Origin: Escherichia coli | Lineage (GTDB): Bacteria; Pseudomonadota; Gammaproteobacteria; Enterobacterales; Enterobacteriaceae | DNA: 64,000 nucleotides | Strand: one strand, 5' to 3' | NCBI RefSeq assembly: GCF_044324875.1 | Contig: NZ_CP172185.1 | Shown: piece by piece, positions 14,710 through 62,028 of the stretch | How positions within the stretch are numbered: position 1 is the stretch's first letter | Layout: each line of letters opens with the position of its first letter | The notes under the pieces: model-generated | Seen by the model: only the letters and a program-made list of their open reading frames with translations | Database searches by the model: none | What the model was told of the DNA's origin: nothing | Translations under genes and position numbers: made by a program

Positions 14710-15281
14710 GGTGGGCGATTCTAATTAGCCAACAGGATTCGCGCCACTCATTTTTCTATGCTTATATTTAGTTTTGCACCTTATTACTTCACTAGGTGAT
14801 CACTTTATTGATGGTTATTAAACCAATCACCAGCAAGAAGTGAAAAAACTGTGAGTAAGCGGGTGATAAATGGTAAAAGTCATCTTGCTATAACAAGGCT
14901 TGCAGTGGAATAATGAGGCCGTTTCCGTGTCCATCCTTGTTAAAACAAGAAATTTTACGGAATAACCCATTTTGCCCGACCGATCATCCACGCAGCAATG
15001 GCGTAAGACGTATTGATCTTTCAGGCAGTTAGCGGGCTGCGGGTTGCAGTCCTTACCGGTAGATGGAAATATTTCTGGAGAGTAATACCCAGTCTGTTTC
15101 TTTGATAATTGCGCTGTTTTTCCGCATGAAAAACGGGCAACCGACACTCTGCGCCTCTTTGAGCTGACGATAACCGTGAGGTTGGCGACGCGACTAGACA
15201 CGAGGCCATCGGTTCACACCCGGAAAGGCGTTACTTTGCCCGCAGCTTAGTCGTCAATGTAAGAATAATGAGTAAGTTACG
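14710..15281 (+). promoter_or_regulatory. rne promoter region and long autoregulated 5' UTR
   Basis: 572-nt non-coding leader upstream of rne; established knowledge that rne has a ~360-nt structured 5' UTR cleaved by RNase E; individual hairpins not mapped. Confidence 0.55.
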
Positions 15282-18516: not shown

Positions 18517-18661
18517 TCATCTTTAAATCAACATATTAAAATTCATCGAATGGCATCCTTGCTAACCAACAATACAAAATAGGCAAAAAAATGCCCGCCC
18601 CGGCGATCCCAGAGCAGGCAGACAAAACATACCCAGTTTCATGATATGTTTTAAAGCGAGC

Positions 18662-19615
18662 TTATTTGTTGAGCTGGAACAGCGACAATCCCTGCATATC
18701 GGTAAATGCTTTATACGATGCCTGCAATGCCGTTTGCTGCATGATGTAAGATGAAATAGTTGCATTCCAGTCCACATCAACCAGATCGCTCATCTGCTGC
18801 GTTTGCCCTAAAGCGCGATCGCTACCTAATGAATCCAGCGACTCCAGTTCGTTCAGCTGCGTGCCTAATTCCGCGCGAACAGTCAGCACATTGTTCAGCG
18901 AGTTTTTCAGTCCGCGGTTGGTTTTATCCAGTGCCGCAGCGGCGGTTTCTTTATCCGCTTCGCTATCCGCGACCGGCGTTTTCAGGGCTGCGATGGCGCT
19001 ATCCAGCATGGCAAAAAGATTTGTTTCAGAAGCGCTACCGTCTGGTTCCGCTACCGCGTTGCTGGTAATACTGTCGAAAATTTTGTCACCCGTGTGCCCT
19101 ATCACCATCGAACGCGAAGCATCGACCTGTTGTTTAATACTTTCTGCTCCACCGACGTATTTCCCTTTCTCTTCGCTAAACGGCGCAGTCTCTGTTTTAT
19201 AACCGGCAAAAATGTAGCGCCCGTTACCGTCAGTGGTGTTCGCCAGATTCAGCAACTGGTCACGAAGCCCCTGAATATCCGTAGCCAGCGAGGCCCGGTC
19301 ATCGTCACTCAAGGTGCCATTGCTGGCGTAGACAATTTTTTCCTGAGCATTCTGGATAGCAGTGGTGACCTGGCTAAGTACACTCTCTTCCAGTGACACT
19401 TTTTGAGTGGCGAAAGTACGCGCCAGCGTGTACTGGCTGTTTTGCGCCTGTGCCTGGGAGAGAACAACAGCTTGTGATGCAGCAATGGGATCATCTGAAG
19501 GGTTAACGACTCGCTTACCCGTCGACATCTGTTCGCCGTACTTCATCCATTCTGCCTGAGAGTTGGTGATGCCGCGCATGTTTTGCTGGTACATCATCTG
19601 GGTACTGAAACGCAT
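18662..19615 (-). CDS. flgL: Flagellar hook-filament junction protein 2 (HAP3)
   Basis: 317-aa ORF with flagellin-like N/C heptad regions; last gene of the flg cluster. Confidence 0.95.
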   Translation of the reverse strand: MRFSTQMMYQQNMRGITNSQAEWMKYGEQMSTGKRVVNPSDDPIAASQAVVLSQAQAQNSQYTLARTFATQKVSLEESVLSQVTTAIQNAQEKIVYASNGTLSDDDRASLATDIQGLRDQLLNLANTTDGNGRYIFAGYKTETAPFSEEKGKYVGGAESIKQQVDASRSMVIGHTGDKIFDSITSNAVAEPDGSASETNLFAMLDSAIAALKTPVADSEADKETAAAALDKTNRGLKNSLNNVLTVRAELGTQLNELESLDSLGSDRALGQTQQMSDLVDVDWNATISSYIMQQTALQASYKAFTDMQGLSLFQLNK

Positions 19616-19626
19616 TTTATCTCCCC

Positions 19627-21270
19627 TTAGCGAATGTTAATCAGCGCATCAAAAATCGCGTTTGCCGTCTGCAGAACCTGCGCATTCGCGAGGTAATACT
19701 GCTGAAAACGTTGCAGATTTCCGTACTCCTCATCGAGATTGACACCGGAAATCGACTGCTGCTGATTGGAAAGCTGCGTCACCACATTACCTTGCGTGGT
19801 GCTACTGGTTTTCAACGTCGCGGTTTTATTACCGATATCACTCACTAACGAGGCATAAGCGTCGTTAAAGGATTTCGCACCGCCCACCGTTTTACTGTTG
19901 CTTTGCAGATCGAGCAGGGCCTGACCGTTGCGGTTGTCGCTATCACCCGCATCTTCTGCGCTCGCCATGGCGATTTTCGCTTCGTCGGTGATTAATACAT
20001 CCATGTTGACGATGGCGTCACTTACCGGTTTCAGTGTGAAGCTGTCGTTAACGGCAGGCGTTCCTGTTAACGTCAACTCCAGACCATCAAATGCCACTTT
20101 ACCGTTGGCATCCGGCGTCACCGTAAAAGTGGTATTACTGGCAAGGCGGGTGACCTGCCACTGATTATTATCGAACGAGATTTTGTAATCTGTCGCCAGT
20201 ACCGCGGAGGCATCAGTTACCGTTGCACCGATCGCAACGTCACCTTTGTTTTTCGTGTTTTGCAGAACCGCGGGCTTACCGATAGCAAAGAAATCTTCAC
20301 CAGCATCGCCGTTAGCATCAAATCCGGCTTTGTGTTGGGTGTTGAAAGCCTCGGCAAATGCCAGCGCCAGTTGTCCAAGCGTATTACGCGTCTGGTCAAG
20401 ATCCTGAGAACGGAATGTCAGAATGCCGCCCAGTGACCCGGAATTCAGTAATTTCTCCGGGATCTCAATATTGCCTGCCGTCCCATCAACATAAGCGACA
20501 GTCGTACGAGAAGGGTCGGCGCTGGAAGGAACTGCCGCAAGTTGCCGCGCCGTACTTCCCTGAACCAGTGAGTAGCCATTGGCCATCGTGATATTATAAG
20601 TGCCACCATCCTGAACGCTGACTTCTACGCCAACAATCTGGTTTAATTCGCTCACCAGTTGATCGCGTTGATCCAGCAGATTGTTAGGTGACGCCCCTGC
20701 CCCCACGCCTGTCAGGCGGGAGATTTGATCGTTCAGGCTGGCGATTTGTTTAGCGTAATTGTTGATCTGATCAACGCTGGCACCTATCGCGATATTGACC
20801 TGTTTGTCCTGGTCGCGCAGATATTGATCGGTGGTTTTAAACTGATTCACCAACCCTTCTGATTTCCCAATCAGCGCCTGGCGCGCTGCCGGGTCTTCCG
20901 CGTTACTCACCAGCGTTTGCAGGCTGGTGAAGAAATCCTGCATCTGTATTGCCAGCGAAGAGGTACTGGTGGAGAGCATATTGTCGATTTTCGACATCTG
21001 CTCATAGCGGGCAGTCAGGCCGCTACTTTGCGTCTGCGCCGCACGTAACTGGTTGGTAATAAACGCATCATACTCACGCTGCACACCAGAAACGTAGACG
21101 CCATTGCCAACCCAGCCGCCAGCGCCCAACGTGCTATTGGCCTGCGTCATAATAGTGGTTTGGCGGGTATATCCGGCAACGTTATAGCTGGAGATATTAT
21201 TACTTGCCGTATTTAACGCCGCCTGGGCCGCGTTCAGTCCGCTCATGGCGTTATTGATCAAGCTGGACAT
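19627..21270 (-). CDS. flgK: Flagellar hook-associated protein 1 (HAP1)
   Basis: 547-aa ORF; conserved N-terminal SLINNAMSGLNAAQ.. and C-terminal rod/hook family motif. Confidence 0.95.
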   Translation of the reverse strand: MSSLINNAMSGLNAAQAALNTASNNISSYNVAGYTRQTTIMTQANSTLGAGGWVGNGVYVSGVQREYDAFITNQLRAAQTQSSGLTARYEQMSKIDNMLSTSTSSLAIQMQDFFTSLQTLVSNAEDPAARQALIGKSEGLVNQFKTTDQYLRDQDKQVNIAIGASVDQINNYAKQIASLNDQISRLTGVGAGASPNNLLDQRDQLVSELNQIVGVEVSVQDGGTYNITMANGYSLVQGSTARQLAAVPSSADPSRTTVAYVDGTAGNIEIPEKLLNSGSLGGILTFRSQDLDQTRNTLGQLALAFAEAFNTQHKAGFDANGDAGEDFFAIGKPAVLQNTKNKGDVAIGATVTDASAVLATDYKISFDNNQWQVTRLASNTTFTVTPDANGKVAFDGLELTLTGTPAVNDSFTLKPVSDAIVNMDVLITDEAKIAMASAEDAGDSDNRNGQALLDLQSNSKTVGGAKSFNDAYASLVSDIGNKTATLKTSSTTQGNVVTQLSNQQQSISGVNLDEEYGNLQRFQQYYLANAQVLQTANAIFDALINIR

Positions 21271-21303
21271 GGAGGTTCCTTATAAGCCTTCAATTACAGA
21301 GTA

Positions 21304-21330
21304 TTATCGGCAGCGACCCGCCGGACTTGA
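21304..21330 (-). promoter_or_regulatory. Sigma-28 (FliA) class 3 promoter for flgKL
   Basis: Minus-strand TCAAGTCC-N11-GCCGATAA, perfect -10 for sigma-28, about 35 nt upstream of the flgK start. Confidence 0.6.
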
Positions 21331-21335
21331 GTTAT

Positions 21336-22277
21336 TCAGAACAGATTATCAATGTTCATGCTGTAGGTTTTGCTCACCTTGTCGCTTATCGATTTCATCT
21401 GCTGAATCATGTTGGTGAGTTTGCGGGCATAGTGAGGATCGGTGGCATAGCCCGCGTCCTGTAGGGCCTGCGCCCCCTGCTCCGCACTCGCGGCGGTCGT
21501 CACGGCGGCGTAGCGCGGGTTACGCGTTAACAGCCCAACGTAATCCGACAATGCTTCCAGATACGAGCTGTAGACCCGAAACTTCGCTTTTACTTTCTTC
21601 GCTTCGCCATTTTCATATTCAGTCGTGGTGATTTCAGTGACTGGCCCTTTCCAGTTGCCAGAGGCTTTGACGCCAAACAGGTTATAGCTCGGCTCGCCGT
21701 TTTCACGGCGGATTTGCCGTTGTCCCCAGCCAGATTCCAGCGCCGCCTGAGCGAGGATCAAATGATGTGGCACACCACTTTGCTGGCTTGCCAGTTGGGC
21801 TGGCAGCGAGAGTTGCGCGAGGAATGCTTTACTGTCACCCGGCAGCGAATCATCGTAGTTACGTGGTACGGCCTTTTGCACCAGCTGCGAAAGCGTCTGA
21901 TTTTGATAACGCACCACGGTTTCGAGCGGGAATTTCATCGGTGCTGCTGGCGTGGACTCCTCTGGCAATGGTTGTTCTGGCGTCATCTGTTTAACCATCA
22001 TCTCTGCCAGCCCCAGACCTTTGCCCGCCGTCATCTGTTGAGCAATCTGCTGGTCATACATACTGGTATACAGGCGAGTGTGCTCGCTGCTGAACAGGCC
22101 ATCTTTTGGTAAAGCGTCGCGCATGCTTTTCAACATCATCTGCACGAACATCCCTTCCACCTGGCGGGCCACCGGACGGATATTTGCCGCCGGATCTTCG
22201 CCCGCTTTCGCCTTAAGTTCGTTGAGCGATTGTGCATCCCAGGCCGCACTTGCCAGTAGTTTGCTGTCGCTGATCAT
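21336..22277 (-). CDS. flgJ: Flagellar rod-assembly protein / peptidoglycan hydrolase
   Basis: ORF 21336..22307 trimmed to MISDSKLL.. (313 aa); C-terminal glucosaminidase domain; start overlaps flgI stop (ATGA). Confidence 0.92.
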   Translation of the reverse strand: MISDSKLLASAAWDAQSLNELKAKAGEDPAANIRPVARQVEGMFVQMMLKSMRDALPKDGLFSSEHTRLYTSMYDQQIAQQMTAGKGLGLAEMMVKQMTPEQPLPEESTPAAPMKFPLETVVRYQNQTLSQLVQKAVPRNYDDSLPGDSKAFLAQLSLPAQLASQQSGVPHHLILAQAALESGWGQRQIRRENGEPSYNLFGVKASGNWKGPVTEITTTEYENGEAKKVKAKFRVYSSYLEALSDYVGLLTRNPRYAAVTTAASAEQGAQALQDAGYATDPHYARKLTNMIQQMKSISDKVSKTYSMNIDNLF

Positions 22278-24136: not shown

Positions 24137-24937
<801 letters not shown>

Positions 24938-25055
24938 TTAGTGACAAGCAGAGCAGAAGCACGCGACGGTGCGCATTTCCCCTCACCCTAACCTCTCCCA
25001 AAATGGGCGAGAGAATAGTCCGCGCGCTTTTATTGCAATGTCATCAATCGTTTAA

Positions 25056-27060: not shown

Positions 27061-27756
27061 TTAAATTATCTGCCGTACTTCGTCGAGGGTGGTGGTGCCG
27101 TAAGTGCCGAGATCCAGCGTATTACCGTTGTTGCCGCGGATCACACCCTGCACCAGAGCAAACTGCAGCGGCTGGGCAACCAGTTGTGTACCACCGTTAC
27201 TGGCGCTAATCGCTACGTTGTAAGAACCGTTCGGCGCAGTGGTGCCGTCAGTCAACGTACCGTCCCAGGTGAAACTGTGGACTCCGGCGGTCAGTTCACC
27301 AATATCAATGGTACGGACAACCGCGCCATTTTTATCGGTGATGGTGGCCGTAACTTTGTCTGCCGCCTGTTGCAGCTCAACACCAAACGGCGTGGTCGTG
27401 GTCACAGCCCCTTCTTCACTGCCGGTTCCCGCAAGAACAGTGGTGCCGGGGATCATCACGCCGTGACCGATCAGGTTACTGGCCTGTAACGACTGGCTGT
27501 TATCAATCTGTCCGGAAATAGATCCGAGCGTGGTATTGAGTTTTTCAATCCCGCTGACCGTGCTGATTTGAGCCAATTGCGACGTCAGCTCGTTGTTTTC
27601 CATTGGATTGGTCGGGTCCTGGTTTTTCAGCTGCGCCACCAACAAAGTCAGAAAACTGCTTTGTAAATCTGCGGCGTTGCTGCCCGTGAGCGAACTACTA
27701 CTGGTGGTGCTGACGCCGGTATTTGTCGGATCGGTGGTGGTTACCGCAATGGACAT
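27061..27756 (-). CDS. flgD: Flagellar hook capping/assembly protein
   Basis: 231-aa ORF, Thr/Ser-rich N-terminus; position between flgC and flgE. Confidence 0.95.
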   Translation of the reverse strand: MSIAVTTTDPTNTGVSTTSSSSLTGSNAADLQSSFLTLLVAQLKNQDPTNPMENNELTSQLAQISTVSGIEKLNTTLGSISGQIDNSQSLQASNLIGHGVMIPGTTVLAGTGSEEGAVTTTTPFGVELQQAADKVTATITDKNGAVVRTIDIGELTAGVHSFTWDGTLTDGTTAPNGSYNVAISASNGGTQLVAQPLQFALVQGVIRGNNGNTLDLGTYGTTTLDEVRQII

Positions 27757-28592: not shown

Positions 28593-28746
28593 ATCTCCTC
28601 CGCAGGTATCAAAATTCTGCCATCAGCTTAAATGCCTTTACGCGCGCGTTATCGGCGGAATAAACGCAAAATGGGTCGCTATTTATGCCGTTGATGGTCA
28701 TTGCGGACAGGTACAATTCACGTTGTAGAAATGGCAGGGGGCGAAA
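28593..28746. promoter_or_regulatory. Divergent flgB / flgAMN class 2 promoter region (FlhD4C2-dependent)
   Basis: 154-bp divergent intergenic region between flgB and flgA; assignment from established flagellar regulon architecture. Confidence 0.55.
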
Positions 28747-29411: not shown

Positions 29412-29438
29412 TAAAGATTACCCGTCCCTTGCCGATAA
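29412..29438 (+). promoter_or_regulatory. Sigma-28 (FliA) class 3 promoter for flgMN
   Basis: TAAAGATT-N11-GCCGATAA, near-consensus sigma-28 promoter 44 nt upstream of flgM ATG. Confidence 0.75.
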
Positions 29439-29481: not shown

Positions 29482-29775
29482 ATGAGTATTGATCGCACTT
29501 CGCCTCTGAAGCCCGTAAGCACCGTTCAACCGCGCGAAACCATTGACGCGGCGGTAACGAACACCCGGGCGGCAAAAACAACCGCCTCCACCAGCACCAG
29601 TGTGACGTTAAGCGACGCGCAAGCAAAACTGATGCAACCCGGCAGCAGTGATATCAATCTTGAACGTGTCGAAGCGTTAAAACTGGCGATTCGTAACGGT
29701 GAACTAAAAATGGACACCGGCAAAATTGCCGATGCGCTGATCAACGAAGCGCAGCAAGACTTGCAGAGTAACTGA
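29482..29775 (+). CDS. flgM: Anti-sigma-28 factor
   Basis: 97-aa ORF; position and size match FlgM. Confidence 0.96.
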
Positions 29776-36951: not shown

Positions 36952-37002
36952 TTATCCTTTGTGTCCGGCAAAAACATCCCTTCAGCCGGAGCATAGAGAT
37001 TA

Positions 37003-46075: not shown

Positions 46076-46172
46076 GCCGAATGCGGCGTGAACGCCGTAT
46101 CCGACCTACAAAATCTTGCAAAATCAACACATTGCAGGAGCGATGTAGGCCTGATAAGCGTAGCGCATCAGG
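46076..46172. repeat. REP/BIME-type extragenic palindromes
   Basis: gccgaatgcggcgtgaacgccgtatccgacctac and gtaggcctgataagcgtagcgcatcaggc, inverted REP copies between yceK and opgH. Confidence 0.65.
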
Positions 46173-55642: not shown

Positions 55643-56396
55643 GTTGTCACCCTGGACCTGGTCGTACATTTAAGAAATTAAATCATTTCAACTTGGTTGT
55701 TAACGCAACCTGTATTTTGTTAACGCTGCGTTACGATGGAAAGTATGTCTGCGGAAATATTTTTAATAACTCACCCGCGCGTTGTATTTTTCTTTTTTTG
55801 TTCATACCAAAGTATTAAAACCCACGTAAATACGCTGTTATCTACGCAAAAAAATATTTTGTTTTCTTTTAAATCTCCGTTTTCCGCAATCAAAAATCAC
55901 CATACAGCCATTCTTCTTGCCCGTCGCTGATTGCTGCGATATGTCTTGCGCACAAGCCGTGACAAACCTCGTCTTTTTGCAGTAAAAAATTGTCCACGGT
56001 GGTGTAGAGAAAAAACAAGAACGTTTTACATGACGAAAGGACTACACCGAAATATTTTTTATATGCATTATTAGCAAGTTAGCACCATTTGTATGATTTT
56101 TTAAAATTGTGCAATAAAAACCAAATGTACAACTTTTCTATCATTTCTAAACTTAATAAAACCTTAAGATTAACATTTTAATATAACGAGTTACATTTAG
56201 TTACATGTTTAACACTTGATTTAAGATTTGTAATGGCTAGATTGAAATCAGATGTAATCCATTAGTTTTATATTTTACCCATTTAGGGCTGATTTATTAC
56301 TACACACAGCAGTGCAACATCTGTCAGTACTTCTGGTGCTTCTATTTTAGAGGCAGCTGTCAGGTGTGCGATCAATAAAAAAAGCGGGGTTTCATC
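55643..56396. promoter_or_regulatory. csgBAC / csgDEFG divergent regulatory region (csgD promoter, OmpR site, csgD 5' UTR, csgB promoter)
   Basis: 754-bp AT-rich intergenic region; OmpR-type direct repeat gttacatttagttacatgtttaac near 56189..56213; candidate csgD -10 TAGATT at 56238..56243, about 150 nt upstream of csgD ATG. Confidence 0.6.
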
Positions 56397-61940: not shown

Positions 61941-62028
61941 GGTGAGGTGTCCGAGTGGCTGAAGGAGCACGCCTGGAAAGTGTGTATACGGCAACGTATC
62001 GGGGGTTCGAATCCCCCCCTCACCGCCA
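61941..62028 (+). tRNA. serX: tRNA-Ser (anticodon GGA)
   Basis: 88-nt sequence GGTGAGGTGTCCGAGTGGCTGAAGGAGCACGCCTGGAAAGTGTGTATACGGCAACGTATCGGGGGTTCGAATCCCCCCCTCACCGCCA with long variable arm and encoded CCA. Confidence 0.97.

Follow-up and report, generated by a model that had tools for sequence, protein, structure and literature searches.

A sigma-28 motif in the flgJ-flgK gap of Escherichia coli matches the known class 3 promoter of flgKL

The flagellar genes flgK and flgL follow flgJ, the last gene of the class 2 flgB operon, and this arrangement raises the question of whether the pair is read from a sigma-28 promoter of its own, by transcription that arrives from upstream, or by both routes. 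The stretch of DNA analysed here (hereafter the window) comprises 64,000 nucleotides of an E. coli chromosome and carries the gene order murJ, flgN, flgM, flgA / flgBCDEFGHIJ, flgK, flgL / rne, rluC, as annotated by RefSeq in an E. coli record of 100% identity. The genes that border the gap of interest are identified as flgJ and flgK on the basis of the same annotation. Our best explanation, to which we assign a probability of about 0.96, is that the motif in this gap is the class 3 (FliA/sigma-28) promoter of the E. coli flgKL operon. The sequence elements, the identity with K-12 and the conservation are results of the present analysis, and FliA binding and FliA-dependent expression are taken from the literature.

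Layout of the motif and its neighbouring genes

An earlier note on this DNA had described a minus-strand sigma-28 motif at positions 21304-21330, in which TCAAGTCC and GCCGATAA are separated by an 11-nt spacer, and a reading of the sequence confirms these coordinates. The note's descriptions of the -10 element as perfect, of the -35 element as partial and of the flgJ-flgK gap as 65 nt long (21271..21335) are likewise borne out by the features of the region, which are given below.

22277..21336, minus strand: flgJ, last gene of the class 2 flgB operon (ORF and RefSeq annotation)
21338..21336, minus strand: flgJ stop codon TGA, 5 nt upstream of the -35 element
21323..21330, minus strand: -35 element TCAAGTCC, 5/8 matches to TAAAGTTT, within the published FliA ChIP-seq motif
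21312..21322, minus strand: 11-nt spacer GGCGGGTCGCT, invariant in length and free in sequence among species
21304..21311, minus strand: -10 element GCCGATAA, 8/8 matches to the sigma-28 consensus
21294..21299, minus strand: predicted transcription start zone, from the motif-centre rule
21276..21281, minus strand: AAGGAA, the flgK Shine-Dalgarno sequence, 5 nt before the ATG
21270..21268, minus strand: flgK start codon ATG
19627..21270, minus strand: flgK, hook-associated protein 1, first gene of the flgKL unit (547-aa ORF; RefSeq annotation of the identical record)
18662..19615, minus strand: flgL, hook-associated protein 3, second gene of the flgKL unit (ORF and RefSeq annotation)
18582..18620, minus strand: terminator-like hairpin and T-run after flgL (12-bp stem with 8 G-C pairs, then TTTTTTT)

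Read along the minus strand, the order of these elements is TTCTGA-ATAAC-TCAAGTCC-GGCGGGTCGCT-GCCGATAA-TACTCTGTAATTGAAGGCTTATAAGGAACCTCC-ATG. The -35 and -10 elements are separated by exactly 11 nt, as in the consensus TAAAGTTT-N11-GCCGATAA, and the flgK start codon on the same strand begins 33 nt past the end of the -10 element.

At well-characterised flagellar FliA promoters, the distance from the centre of the 28-nt motif downstream to the start site is 18-22 bp (bioRxiv 10.1101/188474). The centre of the flgK motif falls at approximately 21316/21317, and we predict that the flgKL sigma-28 transcription start site lies at approximately 21294-21299, which would give a leader of 25-28 nt that carries the AAGGAA ribosome-binding site. 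An A at position 21295, 9 nt after the -10 octamer, is conserved in an ungapped anchored comparison. The supplements of Cho 2014, Cappable-seq 2016 and SMRT-Cappable-seq 2018, to the extent that their tables were covered, yielded no flgK-specific mapped start site. We infer both the exact start site and the share of flgKL transcription that the promoter contributes in the strain studied.

A scan of positions 20900..21700 revealed no terminator-like site, and hence none between flgJ and flgK, and also no sigma-70-like promoter; both a terminator and a sigma-70 promoter were consequently rejected as candidates for the gap. The flgKL transcript likely ends at the hairpin and T-run at 18620..18582. 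Elsewhere in the window, matches above the Rfam gathering score correspond to the rne 5′ UTR element, the SraB sRNA, the PyrC leader, the ES056 and ES036 sRNAs and one tRNA, and such elements are expected in this region of the E. coli chromosome. These matches lie at 14921..15257 (plus strand), 12892..13060 (minus), 36953..37002 (plus), 56250..56341 (plus), 46110..46152 (plus) and 61941..62025 (plus).

Motif score, position and other sigma-28-like sequences

When as many as 3 mismatches to TAAAGTTT-N11-GCCGATAA are permitted, the window yields 3 matches against 0.62 expected, and these are the flgK site, the flgM site at 29412..29438 and one site within flgD. Scoring was also carried out with a weight matrix derived from 52 published FliA sites, from which flgK and flgM were omitted. 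The flgK site ranks second in the window (18.3 bits) with the matrix of all sites and fourth (16.3 bits) with the matrix of strongly bound sites only, and an equal or better score is found somewhere in 3.5% (all sites) or 20% (strong sites) of random 64-kb windows. By its sequence score, the motif is suggestive and not decisive. Extrapolation from the random-window scores gives a chance of ~1e-5 to 1e-4 for the 38 correctly oriented start positions in the 65-nt gap. The bare score is just moderately unusual, and the identity of the promoter is settled by its position and by its conservation.

Two further sigma-28-like matches in the window reach scores about equal to that of the flgK site. One of these, CAAAGTTA-N11-ACCGATAA at 27331..27358 on the minus strand, is located inside flgD and is the same in K-12, and the other, TACAGAAT-N11-GCCGTTAA at 5734..5761 on the plus strand, lies antisense within the ORF at 5540..6349. 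The 52 K-12 FliA ChIP-seq sites include neither of them. Because these similarly scoring matches have no FliA ChIP-seq peak, the bare motif score is weak evidence. TCAA-type -35 elements like that of flgK are known at further FliA-bound sites, namely modA, fliL and ybhK (PMC4183435).

The -10 octamer GCCGATAA is itself over-represented, with 11 copies in the window against 2.2 expected from dinucleotide shuffles. Five or 6 of the copies are in-frame GCC-GAT-AAx codons (Ala-Asp-Asn/Lys) read in the sense direction within long ORFs, rne and flgB among them, and three fall in flagellar control regions. The notion that the excess represents additional FliA sites was rejected in light of these codons and of the K-12 ChIP-seq sites, which in this region are just flgK and flgM. 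The excess thus looks like codon usage plus regulation and not hidden promoters.

The third perfect GCCGATAA in a control region (28649..28656, minus strand) is in the flgA-flgB gap, 57 nt before the flgB ATG. At the -35 position it matches just 4/8, and it sits in a FlhDC-box-like inverted repeat, AACGGCATAAATAGCG ... CGTTTATTCCGCCGATAACG. The K-12 FliA ChIP-seq data contain no peak at this copy (PMC4183435), and flgB is not rescued by FliA (PMC4183435, Figure S6). This copy is most likely part of the class 2 control region rather than a promoter for sigma-28.

Identity with K-12 and conservation in the Enterobacteriaceae

The reading of the motif as the known sigma-28 promoter of flgKL finds support in a direct comparison with E. 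coli K-12. The 28-mer TCAAGTCCGGCGGGTCGCTGCCGATAAT is the motif under the strong flgKL FliA ChIP-seq peak of K-12, with a fold-above-threshold (FAT) value of 47 (Fitzgerald et al. 2014, PMC4183435, Table 2), and the window 28-mers at both flgK and flgM match the published motifs exactly. All 65 of the 65 nucleotides of the flgJ-flgK gap are identical to those of K-12 MG1655, and the same is true for S88 and O157:H7. The K-12 flgKL class 3 promoter (motif centre 1137556, NC_000913.2) has the same 28-mer, the same 65-nt gap and the same flanking genes, and the element itself carries no differences, whereas the flanking coding sequence is ~1.6% different. As judged by this identity, the window site is the K-12 flgKL class 3 promoter in another E. 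coli strain.

The arrangement is widespread within the species. Of 5424 complete E. coli genomes, 4931 have a 71-nt stretch, flgJ stop to flgK ATG, identical to that of the window. A longer segment of 701 nt around the site occurs in 5425 of 5426 E. coli genomes, and many complete chromosomes carry it with 100% identity. In the clinical isolate E. coli NIPH17_0020 (NZ_AP024560.1, locus 1904..1907), a deletion that takes out the whole promoter gap fuses flgJ to a 5′-truncated flgK, which is annotated as a pseudogene. This strain is a natural flgK-null and presumably lacks a filament.

Published experiments provide several measures of FliA action at flgK. In genomic SELEX, the RpoF holoenzyme produced a peak of 27.2 at the flgJ>flgK spacer, which was called high-level, and the top peak in that study was 46-fold at rpoF itself (PMC5493296). 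Array data revealed flgK expression that was 5.5-fold lower on deletion of fliA and 2.2-fold higher on its overexpression (PMC1935009). In an flhD deletion strain with overexpressed FliA, flgK returned to the wild-type level or higher (PMC4183435). A reconstituted expression system yielded sigma-28-dependent expression of flgK that agrees with the binding data (bioRxiv 024604). In the same fully reconstituted system, FlhDC by itself gave weak but significant activation of the flgK promoter fragment (bioRxiv 024604); this is a small discrepancy with the ChIP-seq data, in which no FlhDC peak is present at flgK (PMC4183435).

Conservation was evaluated with species-representative genomes that carry FlgK, of which the closest 80 of 169 were used. 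The genera sampled, all of the Enterobacteriaceae, include Escherichia, Citrobacter, Salmonella, Enterobacter, Kosakonia, Kluyvera, Buttiauxella, Cedecea and others. In all 80 of these closest species (80/80), the best weight-matrix match in the 150 nt upstream of flgK has the form TCAAGTnn-N11-nnCGATAn, and the conserved site ends 30-43 nt before the flgK ATG. The closest 80 relatives contribute 76 distinct sequences, for which the information content per column is 1.71 bits in the -35 octamer, 1.82 bits in the -10 octamer, 0.44 bits in the spacer and 0.6-0.8 bits in the flanks. Of these 76 distinct orthologous sequences, 54 have the GCCGATAA octamer in full. In a motif-independent MAFFT alignment of 23 genera, no intergenic block is invariant apart from TCAAGT, CGATA and the ribosome-binding AGGA. 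Two invariant blocks at a fixed distance, with free sequence between them, form the pattern expected of a two-part sigma-factor recognition site, and conservation this strict across 80 species speaks for a function under selection. The locus illustrates cleanly how a sigma-28 promoter of just moderately unusual motif score can be recognised from its position together with a phylogenetic footprint.

The flgKL class 3 promoter of Salmonella occurs at the same spot after the flgJ stop and has the same TCAAGTCC-N11-GCCGATAA architecture, as in S. enterica subsp. arizonae, where TCAAGTCCACGTCGTAGCTGCCGATAAC is found in a 64-nt gap. Its spacer sequence is wholly different from that of E. coli, and its gap is shorter by 1 nt. 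Salmonella flgKL has likewise been described as under both class 2 and class 3 control (Kutsukake and Ide 1995; Wozniak et al. 2010, as cited in PMC4183435).

One feature of the footprint departs from the consensus. The -35 block TCAAGT has C where the consensus has A, and this C is invariant in 80/80 of the closest species (80 of 169), even though TAAAGT would match sigma-28 better. A frozen sub-consensus -35 element could mean that the promoter is held weak or late-firing by selection, or that the hexamer is also read by a second protein or serves as a signal in the read-through mRNA. We regard this idea as unlikely; if true, it would add an undescribed layer of flgKL control.

Dual control and alternative readings of the site

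The earlier note had also pointed to a companion sigma-28 promoter before flgM and had concluded that class 2 / class 3 dual control of the locus is intact. The features that bear on these statements are as follows.

29412..29438, plus strand: class 3 promoter of flgMN, TAAAGATT-N11-GCCGATAA, in the 75-nt flgA-flgM gap
29482..29775: flgM (ORF and RefSeq annotation)
28593..28746, no strand assigned: flgA-flgB divergent class 2 (FlhDC-dependent) control region, 153/154 identical to K-12

The flgM promoter is indeed present, with 1 mismatch, and equals the K-12 FliA ChIP-seq site, for which the motif TAAAGATTACCCGTCCCTTGCCGATAAA with FAT 48 has been reported (PMC4183435, Table 2). It resembles the flgKL promoter in its sigma factor, in its perfect -10 element GCCGATAA and in its 11-nt spacing, and its layout is also similar because it directly follows the stop codon of a class 2 gene (flgA). 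A promoter placed just after the stop of a class 2 gene, as at flgMN and flgKL, implies overlapping class 2 and class 3 transcripts. The two sites differ in the -35 element, which is better for flgMN (TAAAGATT, 7/8), and in weight-matrix score, which is 24.3 for flgMN versus 18.3 for flgKL.

The upstream half of the arrangement is represented by the flgA-flgB region, in which the FlhDC-box-like sequence AACGGCATAAATAGCG is visible. K-12 has FlhD and FlhC ChIP-seq peaks in this region, with FAT 13 and 16 (PMC4183435), and coordinate conversion places the centre of the K-12 FlhDC peak (1130152) at approximately 28720 in the window. In K-12, RT-PCR detected read-through over the flgJ-flgK boundary, and flgKL is also part of the FlhDC-dependent flgB transcript (PMC4183435). 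Given that the flgA-flgB region is identical to K-12 at 153/154 positions and the flgA-flgM gap at 75/75, the cis wiring for dual control is present. The statement that dual control is intact therefore stands for the cis elements, to which it has to be confined because flhDC and fliA are outside the 64-kb window.

The established scheme of the flagellar cascade in enterobacteria is as follows. FlhDC drives the class 2 operons, including flgB-J, fliA and flgM, and FlgM keeps FliA inactive until it is exported by the hook-basal body (PMC4183435, introduction). Freed FliA then brings RNA polymerase to class 3 promoters such as that of flgKL, where the FliA-bearing polymerase would recognise the -10 element GCCGATAA and the -35 element TCAAGTCC, 11 nt apart. 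Transcription would begin ~25-28 nt upstream of the flgK ATG, and the genes for the hook-filament junction proteins FlgK and FlgL would be transcribed from this sigma-28 promoter to the hairpin at 18620..18582. The lack of a terminator after flgJ implies that flgKL should also be transcribed earlier, by read-through from the FlhDC-dependent flgB promoter. The strain carries the standard cis-wiring that couples the synthesis of hook-filament junction proteins to completion of the hook-basal body. This flgKL promoter is real and already known, and its presence here has little importance beyond correct annotation.

How much the promoter contributes is a matter on which published data diverge. The promoter might be real but minor or conditional, such that most flgKL mRNA arises via class 2 read-through from flgB and the sigma-28 route matters for filament repair or swarming. 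In K-12 RNA-seq data, flgK falls from 318 to 138 on deletion of fliA, a change that is not significant, and is >100-fold lower in flhD and flhC deletions; the authors considered the contribution of FliA to dual-regulated transcripts to be small under their conditions (PMC4183435), in which the class 2 route was dominant. A sub-consensus -35 element (5/8) fits such a role, as does work on Salmonella in which swarming and rapid repair required the class 3 promoters of flgKL and fliDST (cited in PMC4183435). However, the 5.5-fold decrease of flgK in the array data (PMC1935009), the high ChIP-seq occupancy (FAT 47) and the restoration of flgK by overexpressed FliA alone (PMC4183435) all speak against a minor role, as does the strict conservation in 80 species (the closest 80 of 169). 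On balance we consider a mainly read-through supply possible, though it is the less probable reading, and it is a refinement about magnitude and not a different identity for the site. The contribution of the promoter may be small under standard growth.

Two other readings would deny the site its role as a promoter. The conserved blocks could act in the flgB-L polycistronic RNA, either as a processing site or as a structure affecting flgK translation, given that the site lies in the transcribed spacer of the read-through mRNA (PMC4183435) and that a small GC hairpin (CCGGCGG/CUGCCG) is possible in the E. coli spacer. The predicted fold of -17 kcal/mol, however, is not better than that of shuffled sequences (z = +0.71; 148 of 200 shuffles fold at least as well), and the hairpin-forming spacer is unconserved whereas the flanking blocks are invariant at fixed spacing, which is a protein-recognition pattern. 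Furthermore, FliA binds the site directly in vivo and in vitro (PMC4183435, PMC5493296). This proposal, which we consider highly improbable, was rejected on the basis of the z score and the lack of any Rfam family match at the site. A functionless chance match to the sigma-28 consensus might be entertained because an equal weight-matrix score arises in 3.5-20% of random 64-kb sequences and because other GCCGATAA copies in the window are merely Ala-Asp-Asn/Lys codons. Against this stand the exact position and orientation before a late flagellar gene, the invariance in 80 species (the closest 80 of 169) beside a freely varying spacer, and the identity to a site for which both FliA occupancy and sigma-28-dependent expression have been published. 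The conservation and the published binding data refute a chance origin, to which we give even less credence than to an RNA element. With no rival site, no stable fold and no Rfam match, both of these readings are unlikely, and the class 3 promoter of flgKL is the identity that we retain.

Within the flgB operon upstream of this promoter, the flgF-flgG spacer (24920..25055) is 136 nt in the window versus 171 nt in K-12. The K-12 form has a REP-like palindrome, and that of the window has a different repeat-like segment, CTCTCGCCCATTTTGGGAGAGGTTAGGGTGAGGGG. The K-12 spacer exhibits a weak RpoF SELEX peak of 6.7 (PMC5493296), and the form carried by the window is matched full-length in only 1943 of 5426 E. 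coli genomes.
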